This document shows positions 1,327 to 40,111 of a DNA stretch of 41,556 nucleotides, in pieces; within the stretch, counting starts at the first letter, position 1; the number at the start of each line of letters is the position of its first letter. Source of the stretch: a virus (Duplodnaviria > Heunggongvirae > Uroviricota > Caudoviricetes). Where the stretch lies: IMG/VR virus record IMGVR_UViG_2802429245_000005. One strand, written 5' to 3'. The position numbers and the translations under genes were made by a program. The notes beneath the pieces are model-generated. The model was not told the origin of the DNA and searched no databases. It saw nothing but the letters and a program-made list of their open reading frames with translations.

Positions 1327-1824
1327 TCAGTGCCACGATTTTTGCTTCTTCAGTGAATCGTATTGCTGTTCGCAGGATTCTCCTGCAATCCGATACTTTT
1401 CAGCCTCAGCTGCTGTTGCGTTGTAAACTCGGTTGCTTTCTTCAAGCATGTCGGCGAGCACACCGATGACCTTGCTGGCTGGCGTGCCAGTGGGGAAAGA
1501 TCCGGTATAGTGTTCGGCGAGTCGCTTGGTTTTGTCAAGCTCGGCGCGCAGGCTGTCAGCAGCGGCATTAGCATGCTCAGCATCAACACGCGCCACATCG
1601 ATACGGGATTGTGCTTCACGTTCAATTTGTGTTTTCTCCTGATCACGTTGTGACCTGGCCTTATCATCAGCCTGTTTCTGATCTTCCTGTGCCTGCGCAT
1701 ACCCGGCGTCGTACTGACGAATGCCGTGTGCATTCCAGGCTACAACTCCTGATATGACCAGAACAGCAAGCATCGCCATGATAACCAACTGTTTCCAGTA
1801 TGCTTTTGCGAATGCCCAGATCAT
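1327..1824 (-). CDS. Rz-like i-spanin (lysis)
   Basis: N-terminal TM helix then charged coiled-coil body. Start overlaps endolysin stop (ATGA at 1821-1824). Last gene of the lysis cassette. Confidence 0.6.
1350..1598 (-). CDS. Rz1-like o-spanin lipoprotein embedded in Rz in another frame
   Basis: Internal start gives [17 protein letters not shown] (lipobox LTAC) followed by a Pro/Ser-rich segment, entirely inside the Rz ORF. Start codon choice (1598, 1583 or nearby) is uncertain. Confidence 0.4.
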   Translation of the reverse strand: MWRVLMLSMLMPLLTACAPSLTKPSDSPNTIPDLSPLARQPARSSVCSPTCLKKATEFTTQQQLRLKSIGLQENPANSNTIH

Positions 1825-2450
1825 AACGCCAGCACCTTACTGGCAGTGATGTATCGCGCGCGCCGGTCATCAATGCCGTTCCGGCCACCATTGATAAGCA
1901 GAGTTACACGTGCAATATCTCCGGTATACTTCATGCAGCCTTTGCTGGAGAAGAACCACGCCGCGCTACGAGCCGCGTATTCGTCCTGCGCAAGCAGTTC
2001 AGGACTCTCCAGCAGGTCAACCTTAAGACCGTTTCCACAGTCACGATAGTTATTCAAACCGGTAATCTGGATAAGTCCGCGCCCACGGTAGTTCCAGCCA
2101 TCGCCAGGAGCATTGTTACCCATGCGTTTGCTGTACACCAGATTGGCAATCGCTCTCTGGCGCTCAGGTGGCAATGGTGGTTCGCCTGCGCGTCGCCCCA
2201 ATGCGTTGGCCTGTCCCTGAGTGAGACGCCCAGCCCGAACAAAGTTAGCCAGTCCGCTGACGCTGTAGTTGAAATTTTCCTGCAACCGGGTGAAACCTCC
2301 AGACTCATGCCCGACCTGAGCAATAAACATTGCCTGATCTTCTGGTTTGCTGATACCAAACTCTTTCATCGCAGAAGTTATATGCGAGAACCAGCGTGCG
2401 GCCAGCGCCTCGCTAATACCAGCAGCTCGCTGGAATTGTTTAATCTCCAT
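1821..2450 (-). CDS. Endolysin, glycoside hydrolase family 19 (chitinase-like) lysozyme
   Basis: Internal ATG at 2448-2450 gives [12 protein letters not shown]... with [18 protein letters not shown] and NY motifs typical of GH19 phage endolysins. The longer ORF to 2615 has an atypical N-terminal extension. Confidence 0.75.
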
Positions 2451-2643
2451 GTTTAGACCTCGATACTTTAAAAATTTGAACGACGTTACCGCGCGTTTTA
2501 ATAACCGCAGCGAGCATGACAGCGTTGATAATGACCTCAGATAAATCCACAGCCATTGGCGTGCGGAACCAGATTGCATAGGCAACACGAACCGGAATAC
2601 TGGCCGCAGCAACAATCAGGAAATAAGCAAGCCACCCCCCCAT
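2440..2643 (-). CDS. Small two-TM membrane protein, candidate class II holin or antiholin
   Basis: 67 aa with two hydrophobic helices and a charged C-terminus (KVSRSKHGD). Overlaps the endolysin start by 11 nt. RBS is weak. Confidence 0.4.
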
Positions 2644-2733
2644 CTTCGATGTTGAGATCCGTTACGCCGGAATGTGACAACACGAATTGCTATGCCAGTA
2701 CAAATAACTGCATTGGTGATAAGCAAAAAAAAC

Positions 2734-3138
2734 TCATGCGTTACCATCGTCTTTTCTCCCCGGAATTAACTCGCGTGGATTATCGGAACGGTGGTAGAGC
2801 CATATACCAATACGCACAGCAACAATTGCTGACACGAATGCGCCAGCAGAGAAAACAATCCCTTTTTCAAAAGAGTCCTGCGTGATAGTAGGGATCAGGC
2901 TGGCTATGCCGATAAGAATTGATGCTGCTGGTTTATAAAAAAGAAGGCCGCAGAGAAAGCTAAGCATCGACAAGAGTACACGACGACGAATGGGATACTC
3001 TACCGCAGAGGTAACAAAAATTACCGCTCCAGCCAAAGCCCCCAAAGCAACCTCAGGAGGAACTCCTGCTATCACCGCCGCCAGAGAACTCATGCTAAGC
3101 CACTGATTTAAAGTTTCACTGGTTAGTTGAGCTGACAT
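2734..3138 (-). CDS. Multi-TM membrane protein, putative holin
   Basis: ATG at 3136-3138 preceded by GGTGG. About 134 aa with 3-4 predicted hydrophobic helices, immediately upstream of the endolysin. Confidence 0.5.
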   Translation of the reverse strand: MSAQLTSETLNQWLSMSSLAAVIAGVPPEVALGALAGAVIFVTSAVEYPIRRRVLLSMLSFLCGLLFYKPAASILIGIASLIPTITQDSFEKGIVFSAGAFVSAIVAVRIGIWLYHRSDNPRELIPGRKDDGNA

Positions 3139-3358
3139 GTTTTCCACCGTTTATATGCATAACTACCTCCTGAACAGTAAAGCATTATGCATGATAAACC
3201 ATTTATGGTTTTTTGTTACTTCAACATCGTCAATCCCCTGTTTTCATGCCGATAATAAGGCTCACCTTTTACATAACACTGAAGAAACAACAGTACAGAA
3301 ATGATTCAAACTATGGAGATCGGGTTGAATACCGCGCCATCAAATGGCGCGGTAGCGA

Positions 3359-6426: not shown

Positions 6427-6530
6427 GTTAAATCTCCAGATAGTCGCAGCACCCGTTGCGCCGCATATCTGGTTATTCTATTACCTGAAAAACCACATAT
6501 GGATAGAAAGACTGTAAATACGAATAGATA

Positions 6531-6545
6531 TTACCTTTCAGGTAA
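6531..6545. promoter_or_regulatory. Palindromic operator-like site TTACCTTTCAGGTAA
   Basis: Exact TTACC-N5-GGTAA between the divergent tailspike (start 6426) and gene 6622. Confidence 0.6.
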
Positions 6546-6621
6546 TTTGCAAAACGTGCTGGATAGCAAACAAATTATTTGCTACTGTATAAATATACAG
6601 TTATTGCATGGAGAAGATAAG

Positions 6622-6879
6622 ATGCAGCAGTATCACTATCCACTGGAAGACGGATTTACCGAAAGGATTCACACGCCGGGAGGCGTCAGATCACTGGTGG
6701 AGGGATCGCACTTGATGAAATTACTCCGGGATCTCGATAAGGATGGATTTAATGTCGATGGCCCACTTGCCGAACTGACTGCACTGATTAACTACGTCAC
6801 CAGCTCACAGATGTCTATGCAGGATCTGCAAACACATCTCGACTATTGTGCCGAACAATTACGAAAACAAACCCGGTAA
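6622..6879 (+). CDS. Small protein homologous to the C-terminal domain of the BRO-N antirepressor at 8028-8723
   Basis: ATG at 6622 with GGAGAAG upstream. Aligns with the antirepressor C-terminus (LMKLLRDLDKDGFNVDGPLAELT...DLQTHLDY versus LMNLLNQLQEDGHDVSGAAAELT...DIQTHAEY). Confidence 0.55.
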   Translation: MQQYHYPLEDGFTERIHTPGGVRSLVEGSHLMKLLRDLDKDGFNVDGPLAELTALINYVTSSQMSMQDLQTHLDYCAEQLRKQTR

Positions 6880-6886
6880 ATTTAAA

Positions 6887-6902
6887 GGCCGCAAGAGCGG
6901 CC
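6887..6902. terminator. Hairpin between convergent genes 6622-6879 and 6902-7630 (possible bidirectional terminator)
   Basis: GGCCGC-AAGA-GCGGCC with T-rich flanks on both strands. Confidence 0.4.
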
Positions 6903-7630
6903 TATCGTTTCGCTTTGTGCTCGTCCCAGCACGTTTTGCACCATGCCATTAAGCCGTCCGCATTTTGATTATTAGGGTAAAAGCTGGTTCGTTTTCTGCG
7001 GACATTACAAATTGGGCACCACTTCATATGACGTGTATTCTTTGGGCCATCGAGACACCTTGCACACCACTTAGTCAATCCATCTGGATTTTTTGACGAT
7101 TTCCTGAATTTTTCATATGGAAGGTTTATTCTGCATCGCAAGCACTGCTTGCTACCGCTTGAAACTCTGTTAGCTGATTCTTCTTTTGGCGGCGATACAG
7201 AAGATATTCTTGCTGGCTCTGATACTGCCTGAGGTGCTTTTTTAAATGACTGAGACGATATGTCATCACCAGGGAATCTTCCATGATATGCCGGACGCGT
7301 TGACACTCCAGGTGGAAGCTCAGCTGTAAACGGCTTTGGCTGAATCAGTTGCCTCTCTTTTGCTAACTCCTGCTGTTTATAATATGTCTGGATTACCGCA
7401 CTATCATAAGCAGGAGGTGCGGAAATATTAGGCGCATTACCTCCAGTTTTTTGAAACTGAGTAGAGGTGTGTTCTATCACCTGTGTACGATTAATCGTTA
7501 TCTCCCCATCTTCGGTCTTTATCGTTTTGTTATGATTAACGACCGTACGATCAGAGATCTTAGTCTTGTTCTGGTTGATAACGTAAATAATCACCGTAAC
7601 CACACCAACAACTATCCAGAAAACTTCCAT
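6902..7630 (-). CDS. Membrane-anchored protein with two tandem CxxC...WCxxC zinc-ribbon-like repeats
   Basis: RBS GAGGAAAAG before ATG (7628-7630). N-terminal TM helix, Pro/Ser-rich linker, repeats CLRCR...DGLTKWCARC and CPICN...DGLMAWCKTC. Operator motif at 7651-7665. Confidence 0.6.
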   Translation of the reverse strand: MEVFWIVVGVVTVIIYVINQNKTKISDRTVVNHNKTIKTEDGEITINRTQVIEHTSTQFQKTGGNAPNISAPPAYDSAVIQTYYKQQELAKERQLIQPKPFTAELPPGVSTRPAYHGRFPGDDISSQSFKKAPQAVSEPARISSVSPPKEESANRVSSGSKQCLRCRINLPYEKFRKSSKNPDGLTKWCARCLDGPKNTRHMKWCPICNVRRKRTSFYPNNQNADGLMAWCKTCWDEHKAKR

Positions 7631-7650
7631 TGCTTTTCCTCACAATAACA

Positions 7651-7665
7651 TTACCTTAAAGGTAA
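7651..7665. promoter_or_regulatory. Palindromic operator-like site TTACCTTAAAGGTAA
   Basis: Exact motif 21 nt upstream of the start of minus-strand gene 6902-7630. Confidence 0.6.
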
Positions 7666-7743
7666 TATCTTGCTTTCAGGTGATCAAGCATTAAACGCAA
7701 CCAACCAAATACGGTTGATTTTAATATTTATTCGCGTTTATCA

Positions 7744-7758
7744 TTACCTTTGCGGTAA
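7744..7758. promoter_or_regulatory. Palindromic operator-like site TTACCTTTGCGGTAA
   Basis: Exact motif at the head of the structured leader upstream of the antirepressor gene. Confidence 0.6.
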
Positions 7759-7792
7759 ATTTACATCGCACTCCTCTTGTGCCATAGTAATC

Positions 7793-7816
7793 GGGCACTG
7801 GCAAAATCCAGTGCCG
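7793..7816 (+). other. Perfect 8-bp stem-loop (GGCACTGG / CCAGTGCC) in the antirepressor leader
   Basis: Read directly; lies between the operator at 7744 and the terminator at 7851. Confidence 0.5.
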
Positions 7817-7850
7817 GGATTGGCGTCCCGGATTACTAAAAGGCGCATTC

Positions 7851-7870
7851 ACCGCGCAAGCGGTTTTTTT
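7851..7870 (+). terminator. Intrinsic terminator-like hairpin plus T7 tract in the antirepressor leader
   Basis: ACCGC-GCAA-GCGGT followed by TTTTTTT. Confidence 0.5.
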
Positions 7871-8027
7871 ATGCGTATAGCACGGCCACATTCGTATTAT
7901 GGTGGGCTGTGTGGGGGCACCGAAAGGTGCGCCGGGTCCTTTTAGCCGGTTACGCCAACCCTGCACAGTTCACCACCAACCGATTGGCGTCGGTAGTGGT
8001 GATTAACCAGACTAAAAGGTAACCACT

Positions 8028-8723
8028 ATGACAGCTACAAAAAGCACGTCCATTTTTTCTTTCGAATCCCAAGCCGATATACGGGTAATCGTCATTAATG
8101 GTGAGCCATGGTTTATCGCTTCAGATGTTTGTCGGGCTATAGGCATAGCAAACCATCGAGATGCTGTTCGAAAACTTGATGATGATGAGAAGGGCGTCGC
8201 TTCAACCGACACCCCTGGCGGTGAGCAAGAATCGATCATTATCTCCGAGTCAGGCCTCTACACACTGATCCTCCGCTGCCGCGATGCGGTGACACCAGGC
8301 ACTATCCCCTACCGCTTTCGTAAATGGGTTACAGGTGAGGTTCTTCCTCAGATCCGCCGCACCGGAAGTTACATTAAAAACTCGCTCCCGCAGGAAGAAC
8401 GCATAAAGATGGTTGCCGACCAGGTTGCCAACGCCACGGCGTCAGCAGTAATGCAGGCGATGAAGATAGAGAACAAAACCTACAGCGCCCCGCTGAAGCC
8501 AGGATACCGCAGTCTGATTCACTCGCCGTCTGGTGTTCTCGGCCTGACGGAGAACTCACTGCTGATGAATCTGCTGAACCAGTTACAGGAAGACGGGCAT
8601 GATGTATCGGGCGCGGCGGCGGAGCTGACCACCATGTTCTGCTACATCGTCGGTGTGAGTAAATGCCTGCGTGATATCCAGACGCATGCGGAGTACATCA
8701 ACGACAAGGCTGGGTTCTTCTGA
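8028..8723 (+). CDS. Antirepressor, BRO-N (Ant-type) N-terminal domain plus C-terminal domain
   Basis: N-terminus FSFESQADIRVIVINGEPWFIASDVCRAIGIANHRDAVRKLDDDEKG matches the Bro-N fold signature. RBS AAGG before ATG at 8028. Confidence 0.8.
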   Translation: MTATKSTSIFSFESQADIRVIVINGEPWFIASDVCRAIGIANHRDAVRKLDDDEKGVASTDTPGGEQESIIISESGLYTLILRCRDAVTPGTIPYRFRKWVTGEVLPQIRRTGSYIKNSLPQEERIKMVADQVANATASAVMQAMKIENKTYSAPLKPGYRSLIHSPSGVLGLTENSLLMNLLNQLQEDGHDVSGAAAELTTMFCYIVGVSKCLRDIQTHAEYINDKAGFF

Positions 8724-8789
8724 CGGGCGGCGGCACAGGGATGTGCCTTTAAAATAATCATTGGCGATGTGATGTAGATTCGCGTAATA

Positions 8790-8804
8790 TTACCTTAAAG
8801 GTAA
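8790..8804. promoter_or_regulatory. Palindromic operator-like site TTACCTTAAAGGTAA
   Basis: Exact motif immediately after a -10-like TAATAT (8785-8790) and 27 nt before ATG 8831. Confidence 0.6.
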
Positions 8805-8830
8805 ACCATGTGTTTACATGAGGAGGAGAT

Positions 8831-9040
8831 ATGGGATTTTGGTTCGCTCGTACAAAAACGAGGGATAATGCACCCAGCCCTCAGGCAAAAAATGCAGAAG
8901 TTCCGGCGTCAGCGCAGGTTAACAAGCGTGGTGGAGTATATATCTCATCACAGCAAATTTCTGAGCTTCCTGAGGTTAAGGAGATGCGTCGTCTCGCTGC
9001 TGCAATTGTTAAACAGGATCTTGCCACTGTAAGGAAGTAG
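8831..9040 (+). CDS. Small hydrophilic protein, first gene of an operator-controlled accessory cassette
   Basis: Strong RBS GAGGAGGAG before ATG at 8831. Operator motif at 8790-8804. Stop TAG overlaps the GTG of the next ORF. Confidence 0.55.
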   Translation: MGFWFARTKTRDNAPSPQAKNAEVPASAQVNKRGGVYISSQQISELPEVKEMRRLAAAIVKQDLATVRK

Positions 9041-9906
9041 TGTTGCTAGCTCTTCTAATTATCCCAATCCTGGTTAGCGGTTATATTATGATAACCGCTA
9101 ACCAGTATCATTATTTCCGTTTATACCGACACGAAGGCCAGCTTCTTTATATGAAAGTAGCGGCACTAGGTACATATTGCCTTGTTGCATCAGTAATAAT
9201 TGCAGCCGCTATAAAATATAAATGGCCTGATTTTCACCTAGTTCACGATATGGTGGAAACTTTTAATGTAACATCAAAACCAGAAACAGATAGAATTTAC
9301 ATGTGGCTGCTTCTTCTCTCAGCCACATCCATTTGCTTCTCTTTGTGTTATGTGTCTGTTGTGTGGGTGAAAGATTTTCTTCTTGGTTGTTTTTATAAAC
9401 GTGATATTTACGAGCAAAAAACAGAGGCAATGAAGGCCAGAGTACTGCGAAAAACTTACTCGCAGGGTTCTTTAGACTTACTATTGCTTGATGCTATTGA
9501 ATCGGATCCTAAACGACCAATGCTGATTACTTTATCATCAAACAAAGTGTATGTTGGAATAATAAATGGTTCTGGTGAACCAACGGAAAATCAGGGTCCG
9601 CATCAGCACATATCTTTTGTTCCTTTAATGTCAGGATACAGGAACAAAGAAAACTTATCTGTCACATTCACTAATGCTTATCCAGGAGAAATACAGGTCA
9701 AGCGGACTGCAGCAATAAGAGGAATTAGCAGAAAGAAAGTGCCAGGACTTGAGATCATGGTGTCTATTGACGAAATAAGTTATATATCATGGTTTGATTT
9801 TGAAGTATATAAAGCAACAAATAACAAAGTAGAATCCAGGGGGCACGTTATTCGTGTTACCAAAAATGGAAGAAATATATATCAAAGAAATAGCAAAAAA
9901 GAATAG
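9040..9906 (+). CDS. AT-rich integral membrane protein (three N-terminal TM helices plus soluble C-terminal domain); accessory gene
   Basis: 288 aa ORF. GTG at 9040 is coupled to the upstream stop; alternative ATG at 9088 lies in the loop of an 11-bp inverted repeat. AT-rich by eye. Intrinsic terminator directly after the stop. Confidence 0.6.
   Translation: MLLALLIIPILVSGYIMITANQYHYFRLYRHEGQLLYMKVAALGTYCLVASVIIAAAIKYKWPDFHLVHDMVETFNVTSKPETDRIYMWLLLLSATSICFSLCYVSVVWVKDFLLGCFYKRDIYEQKTEAMKARVLRKTYSQGSLDLLLLDAIESDPKRPMLITLSSNKVYVGIINGSGEPTENQGPHQHISFVPLMSGYRNKENLSVTFTNAYPGEIQVKRTAAIRGISRKKVPGLEIMVSIDEISYISWFDFEVYKATNNKVESRGHVIRVTKNGRNIYQRNSKKE
9074..9101 (+). other. 11-bp perfect inverted repeat around a candidate start codon
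   Basis: TTAGCGGTTAT-ATTATG-ATAACCGCTAA; the ATG at 9088-9090 is in the loop. Confidence 0.5.
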
Positions 9907-11042: not shown

Positions 11043-14000
11043 CTATTTCATCTGCTCTTCAACTTTATTTAGTAATGGTGATATCGCCCACAGATTCTGA
11101 AAAGGTAGCATTTTACGGACAGCGTGGGTTTGCTGGCTGTCAAATTCTCCGTTAAGTACACCATTTGCAACCGTCGCGGCATCACCGCCAAGATCAAAGG
11201 TAGGACCAAGTAAAGCACCAATAGCATTACGACTCTGAAACCTTGATACCGGAGGCGCACCAAACATCGCGCCAAGACCAAACCTACCGCCGCTTATGTT
11301 CTCAACGGTATTCAGCGGCTCAGAGAGCCAGCCAAGCATTCCGCCCCGGTCGATCCCCTCTTTCACAAGGTTATTCCAGCTGTAGTCAATATCGCGACCG
11401 CTTAACTTCTGTTTCATCATATAGACCATTGAGCCAAGCGCAATCGTGCCAAGCGCACCAAGATAGAATGCAGCATCGCCCTGCTGGATACCAGATACCA
11501 GCACCCTGTTATGCTGTGCGAAGATAAACGTTTTAAACTGCGTGATCATCTTCCAGCCTTCTTTACTAAAAAACAGCGGGGTATCACCTACGCCAGGCGT
11601 TACAATCACTGAGTCTACATCTTTCAGCACTGCAGACTGGAAAATCTCTCTAGCGAAACGGTCATCCCACAGATGACTATGCCCGGTTAACAGCCCGTCC
11701 ATATCCTCTCCGTGCTTCCCGAATTGCTCCCCGATTCGGCGCAGAACATCTTCATTGATGCCGACCTGTGCCATCTTCCGCATTTCACTTTTGGAGAGCG
11801 TGCCACCAGCAGAAACTTTGCGAGCCGCGTCAAGTATCCTCGACTGCACTATCATCCCGGACCATGATTTAAGTGCGCTGTTCCACTGATTCATCAGCGT
11901 CCAGTTACCGAATTTCTGCGTCATCCAGTTCAGACCTCGCTCAGCGGCGCTTCTCCGGCTATAGGGGTCAGTAAGATCCGCTATAGCCTTTGTACGCGTA
12001 GACAGGACATAATCAAGCCCAACGGCCATTTCTCGCAAATCCCTGGTTGCAATTTTCACTGAGTCCATATTTTTAAGCATGCTTACCATTGGTCCGAGAG
12101 ATTTTCTCAGGCCATGCTGCATCATCGGTCGCATCAGATCAGTTGCAGCGGAGACAGTCATTCCACCAAGCAAACGGAGGAAGTTAATATTCCTAGCAAC
12201 TCGCCCGGCACGAACAAAGAAACTGCGTGGATCTTGAGGTGCACCGTAAGTACCAAGCAGTCGATCACGCATAGCCGTAATATCCCTAATATCAGCCTCC
12301 CGTTGCTTCTCAAGAACTGCACGTCGTTTAGGTGTTTTAGCCTCTTTTATTAGCCGGGTATATTCCTCACTAACCTGACGGATTTGCTCCCCCATATCTT
12401 TACGGCCAAACTGCGCAGTCAGCTCAATTTCTGGTGCCACCTGCCGGAGATAACTTTCCATGATGTAGTTAACATCTGATTCAAGAAAATCTTCTATACG
12501 CTCATCAGGAATAAGCAGCGTTCTGCTTTTAGTGAAACCAGCCCGACCAACGAGTCTCTCTGGGATAATATCGGCTGGTACAAGCCCGGAAGGTGCGCCT
12601 ATTATTTTATTCACGATCTCGTCAGCAGCGTCCTCTGCTTCCTCTCGGGATAGAGGCTCCATCTGCTTCAGTGCTCGTTCGCGGCTTGCATTCAGCCTTG
12701 TGGTTGAATTTGCCCGTTTTTGCAGTCGGCGAAGCTCAGAACGATATTTCCGTGGATTATCCAGCAACTCCATATGGCGCTGATAGACAGGAAGCTCACT
12801 CTTTGCCTGCGCTATATCATCAAGGCGTGTTTTAAGGTCAGAGCTTTCTTTCATCATTCTTGCCTGAAGTTTTTCTGATGAAGTCTCGGCCAACTCTTTT
12901 TCTATTCTTGTAAGACGCGCCTGTGTGTCAGTCTCCTGAGATATAAGCTTATTTCGTTTATCCAGTTCTTCCATGAGTAGAATTTTTTTACCAGACCATT
13001 TCTCCGCTTCAGCGATTTCACTAGCGAGAGCATCAGCGCGCGGTGCCGATTCCTCTGCAGTTTTTAGCAATGAATTTATCCTTTCAATTCGCTGACCTGC
13101 TTTGTCAGCACCTTTGGCACTAATCCCTTGTATCCAGTTGGCAATTCGCCCTCTGAATTCAGTGCGGTCGGAAAGTATCTTATCGAACTTATAAATGCGG
13201 GGAAGATAACTTTTCGCCGTCACGACATCGATATCTTCAGGAAGGATCCCCAGTTCCTGCATACGGGCTTTTGTGGTCTCGAAAATGGGGCGGATTCTGG
13301 CGGCTGCTTGTGAAACCTCAGGAATATCACTCTGATCACCACGGCGCATAGCCATGCCAACAGCTTCATTGAAATCAATAAAGTTCATCCTCTTCACGCC
13401 GCGGGCGCTAACAGATTTGCTGTACTGCTGGTAAGCATCACGAGTAGCTTCCATCTGCTTATAAAGCATGGCGTCGTATTGCTTAATCTTAGTCTCGACT
13501 GCTGTAAACGTAGCCAACCCCTCATCATTTTTGGCGAAGAAATAGTTATTTTCGGCAAGCTGCTGGTTAATCTGACGGGAGACAAGAGATGGTGATTGCG
13601 CCAAGCGGCCAGCAGGAGTGACACTCAACGTTTTGTTAGCAAGTCCAAGTCCAGCGAGCTGTTCCTGATCGAGTGTGGTATTGAAAACCTGAGCTGCACC
13701 AATGCTTTGAGGAGAATCCATACCTCGCAAATGATTACCTACTGAGTTAACCACTGCCTCGCGCGCGCCAGGTCCAGCAAGTAGCTGTGCACCAGCACCA
13801 AGAATCCCACCAACGAGAGCATCAACAACAACGTTCGATACGCTCTCCATCGGTGAGCGAGCTTCCTGAGTGGCCTGTAATGCGGCCTCTGAAGCAACAC
13901 TGCCAGCAGCATTCGCCATGGCAAAACGCCCGGCTGTTTCTGCAATACGACCGCCACGAACGACAGCGCCGAACGGAATAAACATAGAAATCGCATTGAA

Positions 14001-14432
14001 TGGATCTGCTAATCTCATTGCTACAGAAGAGACTGTACCAGCAAATCCCAAGCCTGAATTGTATTCCATGTCAGCTCTCTGCTGATCGATTCGATGTTTA
14101 ATTGCCATTGTTTCTTCAGGCGAACCGGAGTTGATAAACGAATCTGCAAAATCTTCATAGCCTTTAATATCTGCTGCATCGTTATCAAATGGGTTATATC
14201 CTTCAACCCTGTCAAACTGACTGAAAGGAGCACTGGCAATAAAGCTACCCAGCGTGTTATCTATACGAAATGCTGCTTGTCTAGACCTTTGAACGCGTTG
14301 ATCACTGGTAAATGGGTTCACAGCAGAAAGCAAAGAAGGTGTTTCCATATAGAAATTACTGTCATCAGGTGCTGCTATTTGCTGAATATCCTCGCCAAGC
14401 AACTCTTTAGGATCCTGTTCATATATCGGCAT
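11043..14432 (-). CDS. Large internal virion (ejection/injection) protein with long charged coiled-coil region
   Basis: 1129 aa, in the late structural operon. Glu/Lys/Arg-rich coiled-coil central segment. Start overlaps the stop of the upstream gene. Confidence 0.75.
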   Translation of the reverse strand: MPIYEQDPKELLGEDIQQIAAPDDSNFYMETPSLLSAVNPFTSDQRVQRSRQAAFRIDNTLGSFIASAPFSQFDRVEGYNPFDNDAADIKGYEDFADSFINSGSPEETMAIKHRIDQQRADMEYNSGLGFAGTVSSVAMRLADPFNAISMFIPFGAVVRGGRIAETAGRFAMANAAGSVASEAALQATQEARSPMESVSNVVVDALVGGILGAGAQLLAGPGAREAVVNSVGNHLRGMDSPQSIGAAQVFNTTLDQEQLAGLGLANKTLSVTPAGRLAQSPSLVSRQINQQLAENNYFFAKNDEGLATFTAVETKIKQYDAMLYKQMEATRDAYQQYSKSVSARGVKRMNFIDFNEAVGMAMRRGDQSDIPEVSQAAARIRPIFETTKARMQELGILPEDIDVVTAKSYLPRIYKFDKILSDRTEFRGRIANWIQGISAKGADKAGQRIERINSLLKTAEESAPRADALASEIAEAEKWSGKKILLMEELDKRNKLISQETDTQARLTRIEKELAETSSEKLQARMMKESSDLKTRLDDIAQAKSELPVYQRHMELLDNPRKYRSELRRLQKRANSTTRLNASRERALKQMEPLSREEAEDAADEIVNKIIGAPSGLVPADIIPERLVGRAGFTKSRTLLIPDERIEDFLESDVNYIMESYLRQVAPEIELTAQFGRKDMGEQIRQVSEEYTRLIKEAKTPKRRAVLEKQREADIRDITAMRDRLLGTYGAPQDPRSFFVRAGRVARNINFLRLLGGMTVSAATDLMRPMMQHGLRKSLGPMVSMLKNMDSVKIATRDLREMAVGLDYVLSTRTKAIADLTDPYSRRSAAERGLNWMTQKFGNWTLMNQWNSALKSWSGMIVQSRILDAARKVSAGGTLSKSEMRKMAQVGINEDVLRRIGEQFGKHGEDMDGLLTGHSHLWDDRFAREIFQSAVLKDVDSVIVTPGVGDTPLFFSKEGWKMITQFKTFIFAQHNRVLVSGIQQGDAAFYLGALGTIALGSMVYMMKQKLSGRDIDYSWNNLVKEGIDRGGMLGWLSEPLNTVENISGGRFGLGAMFGAPPVSRFQSRNAIGALLGPTFDLGGDAATVANGVLNGEFDSQQTHAVRKMLPFQNLWAISPLLNKVEEQMK

Positions 14433-17179
14433 TATTTGCCCCCTGCGTATATATTGCTCGGAAGGTAATTGGCTGAACCATAACCGAATGGTTTGGTCAG
14501 ATCTGGAGGAGTATATCCATCTTTATTGCTGAACTGCGGCAGCGGATTGCCTTCTCTCCGCACTCTAGCCTCATCAACACGCTGTTGCTGGAACTGAATG
14601 GTTTGCCTGTACATTGGAGATGTCAGCTGATCCGGCTTGAAACGAACAGGGAGACCATTTTCTCCAATATAATTTCTCGGTTCTATCGCTCCGTTTGCGT
14701 CAGGCTGTAAAACCATAACAGCATAACTCCTATCCCTTGCCGTAAGGCCATCAGAAACAAGTATTAAGTCCGTATCACTGCGAGGACCGCCAAAGGATTT
14801 TGATTTAAGCTCGCGTTTTTCCTGCTCCCACTGCCCCTGTATCCAGTTACCAGCACCATTATTTACTCCGTACAATGCCTCAGGTGCATACTTCATAACC
14901 TCTGCTTTGCCATTAACCGTAGAAACTCCCCAGGTGGTTCTGATCATGGCATTGGTCATTTTCTCAGCCTGTTCTGCATCGCCACCTGTCTGTACAAAGT
15001 TAGCATCGTAAATTGTCTGGTAATCTCGCTGATAGGCCGCATTTGATTTTCCTGGATCGGTAATATCCGGAGACCACGAACCAAAGGAAGTCAGACTGCT
15101 GGCGTTATTTTGTGCAGCAGTTGCCCTCGCCGCGACATATTTTTTGTCTCGCATGGCAGTGGAAAGCATCTGTTTCATTCGGTCATCCTGTTGGAACACC
15201 TGGCTGTAAGCCATATCAACAGCCTTATCCTCCGGCACGCCAGCGCGGGAATAATCGTAAACCTTGCCGTAAAATGCCATCGTACTTTTATCAAGTGTTG
15301 CCGCTGCCGCCGGATTATTATCGAATAACTGACCGTAGAATTTTGCCATCGGGACAACCAGCGCAGGATCTCTTGATGTTGCTCCACTGTTAAGCATTGT
15401 TTTAACCTGAGTTGGTATCATGCCGCTTTTAGTTGTGACGGTGACCAGTGTATTGATGCTCTGCGGATCAGATATGGAAAACGAAGGCGCAATATCCTGC
15501 GCGAAATAACGGTCTACCGCTGCCTGATTGTTTTTGTCGTTCGGGTCCAGCGGGAAGTTATTTTGCATTGAAGACACGAACCTGTTTCTTCCCTGCTGAA
15601 TCTCCCAATCCCTATCCATCTCTTTAAATTTGGCCTGCATTTTCTCCCAGCGTTGCTGGTTAGCTGCAAATCCAGGAGCGTTTGGATCCTGTGGACGTAA
15701 ACGTTCAAGAATGTCTTGTCGTCCTTCTGGAGTGAGGTCTTTAGCGGCACCAATGACACCTCCATATTGTATCTGCGCCTGCATATCCTTCCACTTCATA
15801 GCGCCAATGCGCGGACCATTGGCCCGGATAAAATCGTCCTCAGAAGGTAACTGCTCAGGTTTCAATCCTTCATCAAGGGCTGAATATGCATCTTTAACTA
15901 CGGTGCTAAGCTGGTCCGCATACTGCTGGCGGTACTGATTTCTCAGCTCATTAGCCTGCCTCAATGCCTGTATTTGCATTTGAGGGCTCATAGCATCAAA
16001 TGCCGCATTGCCCGTATAACGCTTAGGTGAATCAAGGTTAGTTAGACCAAGGGCTGCCGAGATACCAGTTTCAAGCTGTTCGGTGCTATAAGGCATACTG
16101 CCATTTTCGTGTTTAATAATCCCAGCAAATAAAGCAGCTAGTGTCTTTGGGTTAGAGATATCAAGCTGATCATTCTCCCCAACACCAAGCTCACCACACA
16201 ATGCCCTAATATAAGCATCAGTATTATTACCATCACTAGCCGGAGCATAGCGATTAACAATCTCGCTAACGGTGTCATAGCCTTGACGCTGGTAAGACAA
16301 CATATTTTTACCCAACGCGCGGATTCCATGCTCAGGGGTAGCAAACGTTGCAAAACGTCCATCGCTACCGATCTGACCTTCCCACGGGTTAGATTTGCTC
16401 GCTTCAATATTACCAGGGTTATTATTACGTAAACCACGAGCATCCAATGAATTACCATGTGACATTGCACGACTCACACCGTCAAGATCCCCTGGCTCTC
16501 CATTAACCTGAAGAAACTCGTTGTATTTTTGAGCGATATTTCCTATCCATGCTTGCTGCCCCATTTGTTCCTTGAGCTGAGTTTTCTGCTGAACACGCCA
16601 CTCATCAGGAAGCCCATGCGCATCAGCGTATTGATCAATAGATTCAAATCGCTGCTTGGCTAAATCGACAAATGCTTGGTTATCGCTATATAGCCCCGCA
16701 GACTGAGTGACAGCCAATGCATTTCCTGACAAATACGTTTGATCTTGGAATTGCTGAAACTGCCCAACTTCATATCGACGTGCCTGATTGTAATAAGACT
16801 GCATAGACTGCTGGAGTTGAAAGGATAATTTATTCCTTTCCTCACTTTCAGGAATTGAGCCTAATAATGCCTGAGCCCTTTCCTGCATATTTTTCATAAC
16901 AGCGTCACTCTGACCAAGAGCGTTTTTACCCTGTTTAGAAATCAGCCCATTTTCAGGGTTGTTAATCTGGTCATCTGCAAATTGGTTAAATTGCAGTAAC
17001 GCCTCCTGGGCCATAGCAACATTCGCTTTCTGCCTGGCTTCACCATATGCCACCGCATACTGATCTGCGACATTCGCCAGCACCTGACCTGCTTGAGGAA
17101 CATCGAAGGTCTGAAAACCACCGGTTTGCACACCACGACTTTGCACCTGGCGTCCGGATGTAGTAGGAACAACAGGCAT
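14432..17179 (-). CDS. Large internal virion/tail-hub protein; contains a possible cell-wall hydrolase-like segment
   Basis: 915 aa. Strong RBS AGGAGG before ATG at 17177-17179. Segment RGLRNNNPGNIE...FATFATPEHGIRALG resembles virion-associated murein hydrolase motifs (recalled pattern, unverified). Confidence 0.75.
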   Translation of the reverse strand: MPVVPTTSGRQVQSRGVQTGGFQTFDVPQAGQVLANVADQYAVAYGEARQKANVAMAQEALLQFNQFADDQINNPENGLISKQGKNALGQSDAVMKNMQERAQALLGSIPESEERNKLSFQLQQSMQSYYNQARRYEVGQFQQFQDQTYLSGNALAVTQSAGLYSDNQAFVDLAKQRFESIDQYADAHGLPDEWRVQQKTQLKEQMGQQAWIGNIAQKYNEFLQVNGEPGDLDGVSRAMSHGNSLDARGLRNNNPGNIEASKSNPWEGQIGSDGRFATFATPEHGIRALGKNMLSYQRQGYDTVSEIVNRYAPASDGNNTDAYIRALCGELGVGENDQLDISNPKTLAALFAGIIKHENGSMPYSTEQLETGISAALGLTNLDSPKRYTGNAAFDAMSPQMQIQALRQANELRNQYRQQYADQLSTVVKDAYSALDEGLKPEQLPSEDDFIRANGPRIGAMKWKDMQAQIQYGGVIGAAKDLTPEGRQDILERLRPQDPNAPGFAANQQRWEKMQAKFKEMDRDWEIQQGRNRFVSSMQNNFPLDPNDKNNQAAVDRYFAQDIAPSFSISDPQSINTLVTVTTKSGMIPTQVKTMLNSGATSRDPALVVPMAKFYGQLFDNNPAAAATLDKSTMAFYGKVYDYSRAGVPEDKAVDMAYSQVFQQDDRMKQMLSTAMRDKKYVAARATAAQNNASSLTSFGSWSPDITDPGKSNAAYQRDYQTIYDANFVQTGGDAEQAEKMTNAMIRTTWGVSTVNGKAEVMKYAPEALYGVNNGAGNWIQGQWEQEKRELKSKSFGGPRSDTDLILVSDGLTARDRSYAVMVLQPDANGAIEPRNYIGENGLPVRFKPDQLTSPMYRQTIQFQQQRVDEARVRREGNPLPQFSNKDGYTPPDLTKPFGYGSANYLPSNIYAGGK

Positions 17180-17724
17180 CAGTAACCTCCTATTTTGAAT
17201 CGGGAGTCAGAATTCATAAAACCTGAGTTAGATAACATTGGCGTCCCACCACTAGATGTACTTCCTTTAGAGAACGGACTCCACGTCCCACCAAACATCT
17301 GGTACGCACCGTATGCCTTCAGAGGCGCAGTGAGCAATGTTGTTGCTGCTCCCACATTCCCCTGTTTACGGGCTGAACTGGCTTCTGCTTTATAGTTGGC
17401 AGCCTGAACCTGATAACCGTAAGCCTCGCGTTGCGCGTTATTCACCGTCGTCAGCGAATCAAGAGCGCCAAACTGAGCAGTGTCACCAAATATATCCAGC
17501 GCGTTACCGGTAGATAAATCAGCGCCGGTAGCCCCCATTGTCGCCGCCTGTGTACCAAGCCGCTGTCGGGTCTCTCTGCGCCGTTGCTCAGCTTCAGCGT
17601 TACCCCTGTTTATTGCATCATTTGCCTGAGCTGTGGCTATATCTGCGTTCGCTTCTGCAACCTTCGAGGCATACTTTCCCTGTTGGTACTGGGTGTATGC
17701 CTGAATGCCACTCATGGCGAGCAT
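17179..17724 (-). CDS. Virion structural protein (Gly/Ala/Thr-rich)
   Basis: 181 aa. RBS GGTGG before ATG. Stop overlaps the start of the downstream gene. Confidence 0.55.
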   Translation of the reverse strand: MLAMSGIQAYTQYQQGKYASKVAEANADIATAQANDAINRGNAEAEQRRRETRQRLGTQAATMGATGADLSTGNALDIFGDTAQFGALDSLTTVNNAQREAYGYQVQAANYKAEASSARKQGNVGAATTLLTAPLKAYGAYQMFGGTWSPFSKGSTSSGGTPMLSNSGFMNSDSRFKIGGY

Positions 17725-17753: not shown

Positions 17754-18218
17754 TTATTTTCTCTCCATGTGAAATCTGTGGAAATTAAGACCAAGAGCAC
17801 CATAAGGCGCGGCTTCTTCAAGCCTGAATCCAAGCCAGTGCAGCCATGCTTTGGCAACATGGTTTCGCTCGTCGACGTAGTTTTCCAGGCGCGGATAAAC
17901 TGCCAGCATCTGCTGCAATACAGGGCGGCAGTGGCGAAGAAATGTCTTCTGATATTTTTCAATACGGCTGGTTCCGACCAGCCAGGGCGTACCATTGCCA
18001 CCGATCATTGACGCCGGAGATACACCAAACATGGTTACCAGTTCTCCGTTCGCGAACCCTGACCAGGCCATAGTCGCAGTGCGCAGACCAACGCGCAGCG
18101 CATCTTCGGTAGTCATCAGCGATACCGCATACAGTTCGTCAATATCAGCCTGACGAACATCCGGCAAAATCATCTGAAGATGCTCTTCGGTAGCGGGAAT
18201 AATTTGAACGTCGATCAT
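17754..18218 (-). CDS. Phage structural/assembly protein of unknown function
   Basis: 154 aa. RBS GGGGGA before ATG at 18216-18218. Stop-start overlap with the 823-aa gene. Confidence 0.55.
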   Translation of the reverse strand: MIDVQIIPATEEHLQMILPDVRQADIDELYAVSLMTTEDALRVGLRTATMAWSGFANGELVTMFGVSPASMIGGNGTPWLVGTSRIEKYQKTFLRHCRPVLQQMLAVYPRLENYVDERNHVAKAWLHWLGFRLEEAAPYGALGLNFHRFHMERK

Positions 18219-20689
18219 CAGAATCCCCCAACAGTAAGGCGAGGAATAACGGCAAGAACAGACAGCGGCAACGGGTCAAGCTGACGGATTTTTACACGTC
18301 CGTTTTTGCCCCAGTTACTGTCCAGTTTCACTTCTACTTTTCCGGTAGCATCATCAACAGGATCATCGTAGAACTCGAATTCACGCTGTGGATATTCGTA
18401 CCATTTACCGCCAGGCGTAGTCGCCCAGATGCCGCGGCTGGCATTCACAACCAGAGTAACGGAGGGGATCACCTGTTTTTTGTCCAGCAGCGTTTCCTGT
18501 CCGTTAATGTTGATATCCAGTGTTTCGAATTCAGCAGTTATTGGCAGACCGATGTGCACTACAGCCCCCGGAGATTCCAGCGTGACGGCACCTCCGGAAA
18601 CAACTTTCTGTGGCTCAACATTCGCATCAGAAAGAATGTTTACGGTCTGTCCTTCAAGATGAGACAGGCCTCCAAATGTCCGGCGCGCCATCTGCCAGTT
18701 CGTGGTGGCCGCATTCCTGAGGGATGGCGGGAGGTTCCTGTTGGCACGAACCACTACAGCGGTATTGCTGGTTACAGAAATAATGTCGCAACGTAATTCT
18801 TTTGACACTTCATCGCCAGTATCAGGATCAGTTCCAGCATAAGGGAACTGTAGTTGCGCACCGACATCACTACTGGTGAAGTACGCACCACCAGAAACAC
18901 TGATTGTATATTCCGCGCGGTAATCCCATTCACCAGAACCACCAGTGATGGTCATCGTTCTGTCAGACGTATTTCTTCCATCATAGCTAAGGCCAGAATC
19001 AACAAAGAAAGCGTCTTCATCGCTGGTAAATAAACGGCTGGACAGTCTCTCGATGTATCTCACTGCTTGCCCGTTAACGGTTCGGTTAACGACGAAATAC
19101 ACCGCATCTTCATTGCCTTCGCTGATACTGCATGTGCTTTCATATTTTCCGGTACTGGACTGTGGTGCCCATGCAAAAACCTGCTGATCACGCAAATAGG
19201 TCATCACCAGTAATTTACCGTCATCACGAATGCAGAAGGCGCTGGAGTAAGGGACAATCGAGAAGCACCAGTCAACAATGCTGTGCTTCTGAAAAAGATG
19301 ATTGGCAAGGATGGTCAGGTCGTTCCCCTGATAGCCGTCAACATCGAATGAGTAGGCCAGATCACGGACAACGCTGCCTTTCTCCTGGACGAACAAAGCA
19401 ATATTCGCCACGGCAATTGGCGGGACGTTGCTTGAGCCATTTGATCCCTGAGAGCTGAATGCAAATGATGATGGGGTTAACACTTTGTTCTGGTCGCCGG
19501 TGATGACGTACTCACCTCCGGAAGTCAGCGCCACCAGCGAACCAACATCAATCAGGTGACGGATCTCATTAACCTGACGCCCGGCATAGGTGTAGATAAT
19601 TCTGTCGTCATCCTGCGTAGGATTGCTTTTGCCAAAATCCTTATAATCCCCAGTACGGCTGGCCCAGATAGTCTGAGGGAACGCAGTCGATGCGGCGAAG
19701 TAAAGACGTTGTTGATAATAAACAACAGTGCCAGGATAACCATTAACACTGTTCCAGGCATATTTAGCCCATTTATAGCTGGCATTATCCTCGCCAACGA
19801 CCTGCGAAGGGATATAGGAAATCACCTCAGCAGTTGCAGTAGTGCCATTTACAGCAGTTATACGGGCAATGCCAAAACCACTGTGCAGATACTCCCACTC
19901 AATGCCAGTATCATCATCACCGGATCCGCCCCAGCCATCCCATGATGTGCCTTCTGTATGCGAAGGGCGCAAAGTGCCTGTTTTGCCTGCTGTAACGGCG
20001 CGATAGTAGTTACTGTCTGCACGGCGAATATCACCAATCGACGTACTCTTACTGGTTTCCCATACCGGCACTGAATCCACTGCAGGCTGTTCCAGATAGA
20101 ACAATTTGCCTACCTGCTCCGCGCCAAAAATAGAGGCGCTTGCCGTTAACGTAATTGTCCCGGTGCTGGCGCTGGCATAAACCGTCACTGACTCGTCAAT
20201 ATTGATATCTTCAAATGGCCCGTTCTTCGTTACCACATCAACCAGTTGCCAGTTGTCATGAGCATAGCGGCGCAACTCTTTCGGCGGGTATGCCGGATGA
20301 ACCAGCGTAAGCACGTCGGCGCTTTGCGTGAATTTAATTCGGAACAGATCGGCTTCAGTATATGGCGTGGCAATTTCATAAATAACATTGCTGCTGTTCA
20401 GCACCAACGCACCATCTTTGATAACGCGCATGTACTGGTGTCCGAACTCCAGAGCATAGGTCTGAACAGTCGAGAACTGGAACGGGATCAGGCGGCATTT
20501 CCGATTTGGGTATTTGGCGGCACCGACAAAACGCGTACCCGGTCGATTCTCAACGCCGCCATACTGCCGCACGATAAAGTTATCGCACTTGCGCAAAGCC
20601 ACCTGGTACTTCGCCATGTCGATACGACCGTACAACGACGGTCCAATCTCACCACCGGCAAAGCTGGGCTGGATCCAACTGATAGCCAT
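18218..20689 (-). CDS. Large tail/virion structural protein
   Basis: 823 aa in the late operon between head and internal-virion genes. RBS GAGG before ATG at 20687-20689. Confidence 0.7.
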   Translation of the reverse strand: MAISWIQPSFAGGEIGPSLYGRIDMAKYQVALRKCDNFIVRQYGGVENRPGTRFVGAAKYPNRKCRLIPFQFSTVQTYALEFGHQYMRVIKDGALVLNSSNVIYEIATPYTEADLFRIKFTQSADVLTLVHPAYPPKELRRYAHDNWQLVDVVTKNGPFEDINIDESVTVYASASTGTITLTASASIFGAEQVGKLFYLEQPAVDSVPVWETSKSTSIGDIRRADSNYYRAVTAGKTGTLRPSHTEGTSWDGWGGSGDDDTGIEWEYLHSGFGIARITAVNGTTATAEVISYIPSQVVGEDNASYKWAKYAWNSVNGYPGTVVYYQQRLYFAASTAFPQTIWASRTGDYKDFGKSNPTQDDDRIIYTYAGRQVNEIRHLIDVGSLVALTSGGEYVITGDQNKVLTPSSFAFSSQGSNGSSNVPPIAVANIALFVQEKGSVVRDLAYSFDVDGYQGNDLTILANHLFQKHSIVDWCFSIVPYSSAFCIRDDGKLLVMTYLRDQQVFAWAPQSSTGKYESTCSISEGNEDAVYFVVNRTVNGQAVRYIERLSSRLFTSDEDAFFVDSGLSYDGRNTSDRTMTITGGSGEWDYRAEYTISVSGGAYFTSSDVGAQLQFPYAGTDPDTGDEVSKELRCDIISVTSNTAVVVRANRNLPPSLRNAATTNWQMARRTFGGLSHLEGQTVNILSDANVEPQKVVSGGAVTLESPGAVVHIGLPITAEFETLDININGQETLLDKKQVIPSVTLVVNASRGIWATTPGGKWYEYPQREFEFYDDPVDDATGKVEVKLDSNWGKNGRVKIRQLDPLPLSVLAVIPRLTVGGF

Positions 20690-21294
20690 CAGGACAACCT
20701 CGCAATAGTAAACTCGTCAACCGGTGGCTGTGGTTCCTGTGATTCATTCTGGCTATGCGAGCCAGCACTAAGAATCACGCGATTGTACATATTGAGGGCA
20801 AACGTACCGAGGTCTGCATTCCCAGTCAGCGCCATGTTAATAGCTGCCGCAAGACGCCAGGCCAACGCCTCCATAAAAATGGCATCAAACATGTTCACAT
20901 CTGAAACGCGAGAGACATACTTGAGCCATGCCTGAGGCTGGTCTGTGTAGATCAACTTTCCTGTTCCGTTGGTGTCTGCACCAACTTCGTACTGAACGCG
21001 CATTGCTGCTGTTGGATTGCGTACACCAGGAAGCATAATTTCAGTAATGCGCAGACAATCTGACGGGTACTGATACGCATATTCCCAGTCAGGCGGTGGA
21101 TTGCTCGTATCTGCAAGCGCCACGCGTTTGGTAGCAAAGTTCCAGTCAAAATCAGAAAGCACAGCATCACGGCAGGCCTCAAAGTGCAGCGAACATTCCC
21201 CCGCTTCCTTGCTGGCTTCCTTCAGGCTGTTAATGCTGCGGCTATTGCCAATATTGGACAGCGCACGATTGCAGATCTCTACTACAGAGGCCAT
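20689..21294 (-). CDS. Virion protein (possible head-tail adaptor)
   Basis: 201 aa. RBS GGGGGTGAG before ATG at 21292-21294. Overlapping stop/start with neighbours. Confidence 0.6.
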   Translation of the reverse strand: MASVVEICNRALSNIGNSRSINSLKEASKEAGECSLHFEACRDAVLSDFDWNFATKRVALADTSNPPPDWEYAYQYPSDCLRITEIMLPGVRNPTAAMRVQYEVGADTNGTGKLIYTDQPQAWLKYVSRVSDVNMFDAIFMEALAWRLAAAINMALTGNADLGTFALNMYNRVILSAGSHSQNESQEPQPPVDEFTIARLS

Positions 21295-39172: not shown

Positions 39173-39468
39173 AAAAGTTAAGCCGACTTGAAAAATATCA
39201 CATGAACAAGGTTTCAATGCGCAGTCCGTCAAAGATTGTCGCCGTTACTCCTGCGGCGATAGAGATCGAAAAACGCGCGATTGAAAGAGAGAAAAAAGGG
39301 CAGTTCCGCATTGCCGCTCACCTTTGGCTTCAGTGTATGGATGTTGCTTCTGGTGATGTTGAGCGTGCGAGGATCGCGGTTCGCAGGGACCAATGTATCA
39401 CAAAAGGTAACGGCCTTCGCCGTGGCGACTATAGCGGCATAGGATGTTGTGGGGTGGTTTATGACTAA
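39169..39468 (+). CDS. Small regulator-like protein (ANR-like) preceding the methyltransferase
   Basis: GTG start with AGAGAGGG upstream. 99 aa. Family assignment from recalled motif AHLWLQCMDVA only. Confidence 0.5.
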   Translation: MKKLSRLEKYHMNKVSMRSPSKIVAVTPAAIEIEKRAIEREKKGQFRIAAHLWLQCMDVASGDVERARIAVRRDQCITKGNGLRRGDYSGIGCCGVVYD

Positions 39469-40111
39469 GAAATACACACTAATCTATGCAGATCCACCCT
39501 GGGTATACCGGGACAAAGCCGCAGATGGTAATCGCGGTGCCGGTTTTAAATATCCGGTTATGAGTGTGCTGGACATCTGCCGCCTTCCTGTGTGGGATTT
39601 GGCCGATGAAAACTGTCTGTTGGCCATGTGGTGGGTGCCAACACAACCACTCGAAGCACTAAAAGTTGTTGAAGCCTGGGGATTCCGTCTGATGACCATG
39701 AAGGGATTCACGTGGATAAAATGTGGTAGTCGACAACCAGATAAACTGGTTATGGGTATGGGACACATGACTCGCGCCAATAGTGAAGATTGCCTGTTTG
39801 CGGTAAAGGGAAAACTACCTCCGCGCATTAATGCAGGTATCGTTCAGTCATTTACCGCACCGCGGCTTGAGCATTCAAGAAAACCAGATATTGTTCGTGA
39901 AAAACTTGTGCAATTGTTAGGCGATGTTTCTCGCATTGAACTGTTCGCCCGCCAGACGTCTCATGGCTTCGATGTTTGGGGTAATCAGTGCGAAGACCCG
40001 GCAGTGCAACTACACCCTGGATACGCGTTGGATATTGCCGGATTAACAAATGCATTCAGCAATGCTCCGCTGTCACCAACAGACAACCAGGGGCGGGAGC
40101 GTGCAGCATGA
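39461..40111 (+). CDS. MT-A70-family N6-adenine DNA methyltransferase
   Basis: Catalytic DPPW motif in MTKKYTLIYADPPWVY. About 216 aa. Start taken at ATG 39461; the track starts at GTG 39449. Confidence 0.75.
   Translation: MTKKYTLIYADPPWVYRDKAADGNRGAGFKYPVMSVLDICRLPVWDLADENCLLAMWWVPTQPLEALKVVEAWGFRLMTMKGFTWIKCGSRQPDKLVMGMGHMTRANSEDCLFAVKGKLPPRINAGIVQSFTAPRLEHSRKPDIVREKLVQLLGDVSRIELFARQTSHGFDVWGNQCEDPAVQLHPGYALDIAGLTNAFSNAPLSPTDNQGRERAA

Follow-up and report, generated by a model that had tools for sequence, protein, structure and literature searches.

The catalytic domain of ORF39, the endolysin of Hafnia phage Enc34 (PDB 7q46/7q47), founded a structurally defined class of peptidoglycan hydrolases (CDD PHA02564), all-helical relatives of the lysozyme alpha-lobe that show a distant, circularly permuted relation to GH73 and GH23 (PMC8943055). 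Glu131 is the catalytic residue of this enzyme, Tyr95 and Trp79 are catalytically important, and turbidity assays show that the domain (ORF39deltaC) breaks down Gram-negative peptidoglycan (PMC8943055). In Salmonella phage BSPM4, the homologous M4Lys domain (M4LysdeltaTMD) clears purified peptidoglycan as well, and muropeptide analysis of M4Lys indicated an N-acetylglucosaminidase with a possible endopeptidase side activity (PMC7143992). Both founding members are lysis-cassette proteins of about 25 kDa with a C-terminal transmembrane domain. In phage T7, peptidoglycan is cut during genome ejection by an SLT transglycosylase that occupies residues 1-156 of the ejection protein gp16 (PMC8954989). 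The subject of this study is a gene for a protein of 915 amino acids (aa) in a stretch of 41,556 nucleotides from the virus record IMGVR_UViG_2802429245_000005 (IMG/VR; Caudoviricetes), hereafter called the window. Comparison with the systems above, by sequence and by predicted structure, makes it likely that the 915-aa protein is a DNA-ejection protein in the gp15 position with an embedded Enc34-type glycosidase, in which E358 would be the general acid and Y323 and Y311 substrate-positioning residues, and that this enzyme opens the cell wall during genome delivery.

The open reading frame (ORF) begins with ATG and lies on the minus strand at 14432..17179, exactly where a preliminary description of the window had placed it. 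That description had quoted a 49-aa segment of the protein as reminiscent of virion-associated peptidoglycan hydrolases but could not name the family; the segment occurs once in the protein (aa 245-293, by exact string match) and proves to be the N-terminal third of a domain of about 135 aa; the segment includes an RNNNPGN motif, W266 and the beginning of helix alpha-2. With the whole protein as query, phmmer against all PDB sequences returned only two matches, both on this region: 7q47_A, named 'Endolysin' (E 3.9e-15, aa 247-362), and 9vvp_L, named 'Gp29' (E 1.1e-34, aa 247-399). The endolysins of BSPM4 and other Chi-like phages match the domain at 36-37% identity (tblastn, E ~1e-15). Judged by sequence and by predicted fold, the quoted segment is thus part of an Enc34-type peptidoglycan hydrolase domain, with a resemblance far above chance, and the family that the preliminary description had left unnamed can now be named, since sequence, predicted fold and the three published active-site positions agree. 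Unlike Enc34 ORF39 and M4Lys, the 915-aa protein carries this domain internally, has no transmembrane domain, is encoded among ejection genes and coexists with a separate GH19 endolysin. When the whole protein and the domain by itself were scanned against Pfam and NCBIfam, nothing relevant emerged, the only hit being a sub-threshold match to GA_3 at aa 49-122, and neither query matched SLT or any other hydrolase model of Pfam at E<=1. A lytic transglycosylase of the GH23/SLT type, as in the N-terminus of T7 gp16, was considered for the domain and rejected, as no Pfam SLT match and no GH23 structure was found by Foldseek. Loss or replacement of the domain in shorter or longer relatives (832 and 1015-1074 aa) was likewise considered, and the domain was kept in all 120 relatives listed.

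Residues 236-400 were modelled with AlphaFold from an alignment of 47 diverse homologs; the model consists of five helices and a beta-hairpin loop (predicted local distance difference test, pLDDT, 87.5; predicted template modelling score, pTM, 0.80). Its sole significant fold match in the PDB by Foldseek is 7q47 (chains A and B; E 3.8e-10, probability 1.00, template modelling (TM) score 0.72-0.75), the next entry having an E-value of 0.68; 9vvp was not among these Foldseek matches, perhaps because its N-terminal domain is unmodelled or because the entry is absent from the Foldseek copy. The predicted fold is all-helical and lysozyme alpha-lobe-like and has its catalytic helix alpha-5 after alpha-4, which is the mark of the Enc34-type class. 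In the phmmer alignment to 7q47, Glu131, Tyr95 and Trp79 of Enc34 pair with E358, Y323 and Y311 (the Enc34 residues are indices 132, 96 and 80 of the 7q47 chain, a constant offset of 1 from the published numbering), so the Glu, Tyr and aromatic active-site positions are common to the 915-aa protein and to Enc34 ORF39 and M4Lys. Conservation was followed in two alignments, one of 30 full-length relatives down to 34% identity (A1) and one of 47 diverse small homologs at 39-52% identity (A2). E358 and Y323 are invariant in both (30/30 and 47/47), and position 311 is always aromatic, being Trp in 24 and Tyr in six sequences of A1, and Trp in 36 and Tyr in 11 of A2 (60 and 17 of 77 overall). The RNNNPGN signature (aa 251-257) is invariant in the full-length relatives and present in 45-47 of the 47 small homologs, and the H-E-N-G motif that contains E358 is nearly invariant across the aligned homologs. 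About half of the invariant columns of A1 fall between aa 251 and 358, which makes the domain the most constrained part of the protein. Since the active-site residues and motifs are conserved and the domain is the most constrained part, these patterns argue for a catalytically competent enzyme.

Outside the hydrolase domain, the full-length AlphaFold model (pLDDT 78) predicts a disordered N-terminus, long helices up to aa 232 and, after the domain, about 500 mainly helical residues. The N-terminal region is common to epsilon15 gp15 (phrog_992, phrog_19141). The four best PDB matches of the whole model are all T7 gp15 (9jyy_G, 7k5c_A, 7eyb_A and 6yt5_A; Foldseek E 1.3e-4 to 3.3e-3, probability 0.99-1.00), in structures that represent both the capsid core and the post-ejection periplasmic tunnel. 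T7 gp15 (internal virion protein C, the periplasmic tunnel protein) has the same gene position. Against predicted viral structures (BFVD) the whole model gave 82 matches at E<=1e-3. Among them are an 'Internal virion protein C' (Vibrio phage VP3), the internal virion proteins from phages JG068 and RSB3, and podovirus proteins of similar size that carry SLT, GH108, tail lysozyme, M23, NlpC/P60 or LT_GEWL domains.

The genes are ordered nozzle, gp13-like, gp14-like, 915-aa gene and gp16 homolog, and the 915-aa gene shares 1-nt stop/start overlaps with its neighbours at both ends (TGATG upstream, TAATG downstream). The upstream neighbour, named 'virion core protein, T7 gp14 family' in RefSeq, was assigned through phrog_418 and through a PF24072 match that falls below the curated cut-off. 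The downstream neighbour of 1129 aa is related to T7 gp16 through phrog_342, to which its aa 21-1129 align at profile positions 192-1227; BLASTP against T7 gp16 itself gave no significant pairwise match. T7 gp16 and the gp16 of Kayfunavirus EcoDS1 enter the same profile from positions 4 and 51, and since the gp16 homolog of the window aligns only from position 192, it is without the N-terminal module, a hydrolase/'tape' region, that T7 gp16 has there. No SLT or other hydrolase match was found in it with Pfam. RefSeq calls this gene 'DUF919 family protein', which is probably a misnomer apparently derived from a 46-aa coiled-coil match (aa 530-575) to the baculovirus family PF06034. For the epsilon15 counterpart of the gp13-like protein, the RefSeq note reports a GNAT acetyltransferase-like fold (HHpred), an odd finding for a protein in the T7 gp13 position.

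The closest syntenic system is that of epsilon15, in which the order gp11-gp12-gp13-gp14-gp15 is identical to the order from the nozzle to the 915-aa gene. The gp15 of epsilon15 and its phiV10 homolog are syntenic orthologs of the 915-aa protein over aa 1-516, the hydrolase domain included, with 44% identity (tblastn); in its RefSeq note the domain appears as an SLT-B-like HHpred match, not as a member of the Enc34 family. The C-terminal half of epsilon15 gp15 is unrelated in sequence to that of the 915-aa protein, identity stopping at aa 516, which places a mosaic junction inside the gene (C-terminal region at 14435-16039 of the window, compared with epsilon15 gp15 at L002:7001-9526). Downstream, epsilon15 gp15 is followed by gp16 and gp17 (PHROGs 1145 and 684) and the 915-aa gene by a T7-type gp16 homolog, and the C-terminal half may co-vary with the binding partner. 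A second comparison is offered by Kayfunavirus gp16 (internal virion protein D), in which an Enc34-type domain, 46-48% identical over aa 243-402, takes up the extreme N-terminus (residues 3-150 of 1295), whereas in the window the domain is internal to the preceding protein. PDB entry 9vvp 'Gp29' is one such Kayfunavirus gp16, an origin deduced by tblastn (aligned stretch 99.3% identical); a literature search on the entry found no paper. The placement of the hydrolase therefore differs among these phages: SLT-type on gp16 in T7, Enc34-type on gp16 in Kayfunavirus, and Enc34-type on the gp15-position protein in epsilon15 and in the window, where the gp16 homolog has none. The hydrolase of the 915-aa protein would be a functional analogue of the SLT domain of T7 gp16 that is not of the GH23/SLT family, has a permuted helix order (PMC8943055) and sits on the other protein. 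A precedent for a lysin on a gp15-like instead of a gp16-like ejection protein is gp35 of K1E/K1-5 (PMC8954989); in gp35 and other gp15-like carriers of wall hydrolases the hydrolase folds are unrelated to the Enc34 type. Taken together, these placements are a clear case of a hydrolase module being shuffled between the gp15-like and the gp16-like ejection protein.

The window, a temperate E. coli podophage, encodes an integrase, a repressor, RecET-like and replication genes, small and large terminase subunits, portal, protease, major head protein, tail adaptor and tailspike. It has a complete lysis cassette of its own, composed of a holin, a GH19-type endolysin and an Rz-like spanin, apart from the ejection genes (Table 1). 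The endolysin ORF as listed starts with TTG and encodes 264 aa, of which the PHROG match covers the part from aa 50 and the Pfam GH19 match aa 171-224 only; its true start is probably downstream of the listed TTG.

By analogy with T7, as reviewed in PMC8954989, a mechanism can be proposed. The 915-aa protein would be packaged in the capsid alongside the gp13-, gp14- and gp16-like proteins. Once the phage has adsorbed, the gp14-like protein would exit first and form an outer-membrane pore; the 915-aa protein would exit next, and its E358-dependent glycosidase would cut glycan strands locally, opening the murein for the lengthening periplasmic tunnel and, after it, for the gp16 homolog. The helical regions of the 915-aa protein, together with the gp16 homolog, would form the conduit across the periplasm. 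The enzymatic step may, as in T7, be important only where the murein is highly cross-linked. The preliminary description had supposed that the activity is used during ejection, and this proposal gains support from the gene order, the synteny with epsilon15, the presence of the same domain on Kayfunavirus gp16 and the separate lysis cassette. The label of internal virion protein for the 915-aa protein is backed by synteny and homology, and for this particular phage it is something that we infer. A more speculative and rather doubtful elaboration starts from the position of the hydrolase, which lies in the middle of the presumed tunnel-forming protein and not at the tip of gp16: for this reason it might act on the assembled tunnel as a stationary ring of enzymes, one per protomer, that reaches the murein before gp16 and widens the hole while the tunnel is being put together. 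The C-terminal halves, unrelated between the 915-aa protein and epsilon15 gp15, would then be interchangeable modules for docking, each suited to its downstream partner (T7-type gp16 in the window, gp16/gp17 in epsilon15). On that view podovirus ejectosomes would consist of three cassettes that can be swapped independently, namely a scaffold at the N-terminus, a hydrolase and a C-terminal half that docks the partner.

Several observations weigh against an ejection protein of the gp15 kind with an active glycosidase. The TM-scores of the whole model to T7 gp15 are only 0.17-0.25 (Foldseek), as may happen with a long helical protein of variable conformation. The 915-aa protein has no match to phrog_1339, which T7 gp15 and EcoDS1 gp15 both match at E 0, and an hhalign comparison of A1 with T7 gp15 as a single sequence gave a colinear (aa 584-786 vs 452-639) but not significant alignment (E 0.056, probability ~1%). 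Since that comparison is not significant, the link to gp15 is one of gene position and fold; with sequence homology to T7 gp15 not detectable, the protein is therefore called gp15-like in position and fold, and it is not a demonstrated member of the T7 gp15 family. Bond specificity in the Enc34-type family is unsettled (glucosaminidase with or without endopeptidase), and the residue equivalent to Trp79 of Enc34 is Tyr in the 915-aa protein. This last substitution would fit a catalytically inactive module that binds murein or has a structural role, anchoring or spacing the ejection tunnel. We regard such a module as quite unlikely, given that the catalytic Glu and Tyr are invariant in all 77 aligned sequences, that the RNNNPGN and HENG motifs are conserved as in proven enzymes, that no part of the protein is more conserved than the domain, and that Tyr at position 311 is also found in 11 of the 47 small stand-alone homologs.

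Two further readings place the protein elsewhere in the infection cycle or in the virion. The full-length protein matches phrog_1044 (E 0), which PHROG labels 'lysis/endolysin', and this too counts against an ejection role; together with the RefSeq name 'endolysin' of the TL-2011b homolog and the fact that Enc34 ORF39 and M4Lys are true lysis-cassette endolysins, it would suit a role as the endolysin of the phage, or as an additional one, that attacks the wall from inside when infection ends. That role is nevertheless very improbable. A complete lysis cassette (holin, GH19 endolysin, spanin) is present at another place in the window, which makes the PHROG label misleading as to role; the label probably stems from the domain. 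Translational coupling ties the gene to the gp14-like and gp16-like ejection genes within the structural module, and about 780 of the 915 residues form a non-enzymatic helical scaffold resembling T7 gp15. A location outside the ejected core, as a component of the tail hub or tail tube, is suggested by epsilon15, whose packaging/injection device is given as gp4, gp20, gp15 and gp17/16 in the part of PMC12391199 that summarises Guichard et al. 2013, and by one review that assigns the epsilon15 core to gp17 alone (PMC5850374). For the 915-aa protein there seems to be little room for this, since a T7-type adaptor (20689-21294) and a nozzle (18218-20689) are already encoded, the flanking genes belong to the gp14 and gp16 families of core proteins and the best fold matches are to T7 gp15; either location, core or tail, would still make the protein a virion-associated lysin. 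A gp15-position ejection protein with an embedded Enc34-type enzyme thus appears to be the likely identity of the 915-aa protein.

The gene is by no means rare. It is 99.6% identical to a gene of Escherichia phage EC.W1-9 annotated 'hypothetical protein', chromosomal prophages carry it in 172 of the 5,426 complete E. coli genomes, where RefSeq also names it 'hypothetical protein', and the protein has 1839 homologs at E<=1e-5, mostly from Enterobacterales prophages and all unnamed. A large and common gene family goes unannotated in this way because neither Pfam nor NCBIfam offers a model of the domain, which in an exhaustive phmmer search matches 11,884 representative clusters at E<=1e-3 and 5,567 at E<=1e-10; the annotation gap for the Enc34-type domain thus extends over more than 11,000 representative clusters, with genes released as 'hypothetical protein'. 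Architectures were counted for 140 newly retrieved representatives among the closest domain matches, the same architecture being defined as a protein of at least 550 aa with the domain starting at residue 200-420. Half of them (70) have this architecture, 24 are small stand-alone proteins, 17 carry the domain at the C-terminus and 10 at the N-terminus, and 19 have it at another internal position. Among deposited phage genomes the domain was detected by tblastn in Chi-like endolysins, gp15 of epsilon15 and phiV10, gp16 of Kayfunavirus and Mu-like Pseudomonas phages, and additionally in one tape-measure protein and in 'P5' structural proteins of tailless phages; one carrier of the latter type, GP11 of the tailless phage NO16, was found in virions by mass spectrometry (PMC13552765). 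A hydrolase domain on a podovirus ejection protein is an ordinary arrangement that standard annotation misses. Its recognition names the most probable wall-opening enzyme for DNA entry in a common group of temperate podophages of E. coli, Klebsiella and Serratia, and the domain is a candidate small, soluble lysin against Gram-negative peptidoglycan.

Table 1. Features of the window discussed in the text, with positions, strand and the evidence for each assignment.
Feature	Position	Strand	Basis
Whole gene, predicted gp15-position ejection (internal virion) protein with embedded hydrolase domain	14432..17179	-	ORF; phrog_1044; T7 gp15 fold matches
N-terminal region, aa 1-235: disordered 1-44, long helices 37-232	16475..17179	-	AlphaFold secondary structure, pLDDT
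Enc34-type (PHA02564) hydrolase domain, aa ~245-380	16040..16447	-	phmmer against PDB; Foldseek
Segment quoted in the preliminary description, aa 245-293	16301..16447	-	String match
RNNNPGN motif, aa 251-257	16409..16429	-	Conservation in A1 and A2
Y311 codon, aligned to Enc34 Trp79, aromatic kept	16247..16249	-	Alignment, conservation
Y323 codon, aligned to Enc34 Tyr95	16211..16213	-	Alignment, conservation
E358 codon, aligned to catalytic Glu131 of Enc34 (H-E-N-G)	16106..16108	-	Alignment, conservation
C-terminal region, aa 381-915: mostly helical, small beta region aa 750-845, disordered tail	14435..16039	-	AlphaFold; phrog_38128 at aa 404-791
Tail adaptor, T7-type	20689-21294		phrog_394
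Tail nozzle (tubular protein B-like), 823 aa	18218..20689	-	phmmer E 6.1e-216 to 8ck1_A 'Tail Nozzle', full length; phrog_376
gp13-like internal virion protein, 154 aa	17754..18218	-	phrog_308 E 9.2e-63; epsilon15 gp13 position
T7 gp14-like internal virion protein, 181 aa, upstream neighbour	17179..17724	-	PF24072 T7_gp14 E 3.4e-5; phrog_418 E 3.5e-67
gp16 homolog, 1129 aa, downstream neighbour	11043..14432	-	phrog_342 E 3.9e-233
Lysis cassette, whole	1327..3147	-	PHROG and Pfam
Holin	2734-3147	-	phrog_198; PF16931 Phage_holin_8
GH19-type endolysin	1821-2615	-	phrog_181; PF00182 Glyco_hydro_19
Rz-like spanin	1327-1824	-	phrog_312; PF10721
126-aa protein, common to Ant in C-terminal region only	6499-6879	+	
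242-aa protein, endonuclease VII/HNH-like C-terminus	6902-7630	-	
Ant-like anti-repressor	8028-8723	+	
288-aa protein	9040-9906	+	

Between the tailspike and the ejection genes lies an island (6499-9906), partly on the opposite strand, that includes the anti-repressor and is reminiscent of an immI-type region. Two DNA methyltransferase genes are present, at 1-516 (+, phrog_1277) and 39449-40111 (+, phrog_359). The window begins exactly at the ATG of the first of these, and its last letters are the integrase start codon (gene at 40306-41556, -), so that it looks as if it had been cut at gene boundaries of a prophage or phage record.

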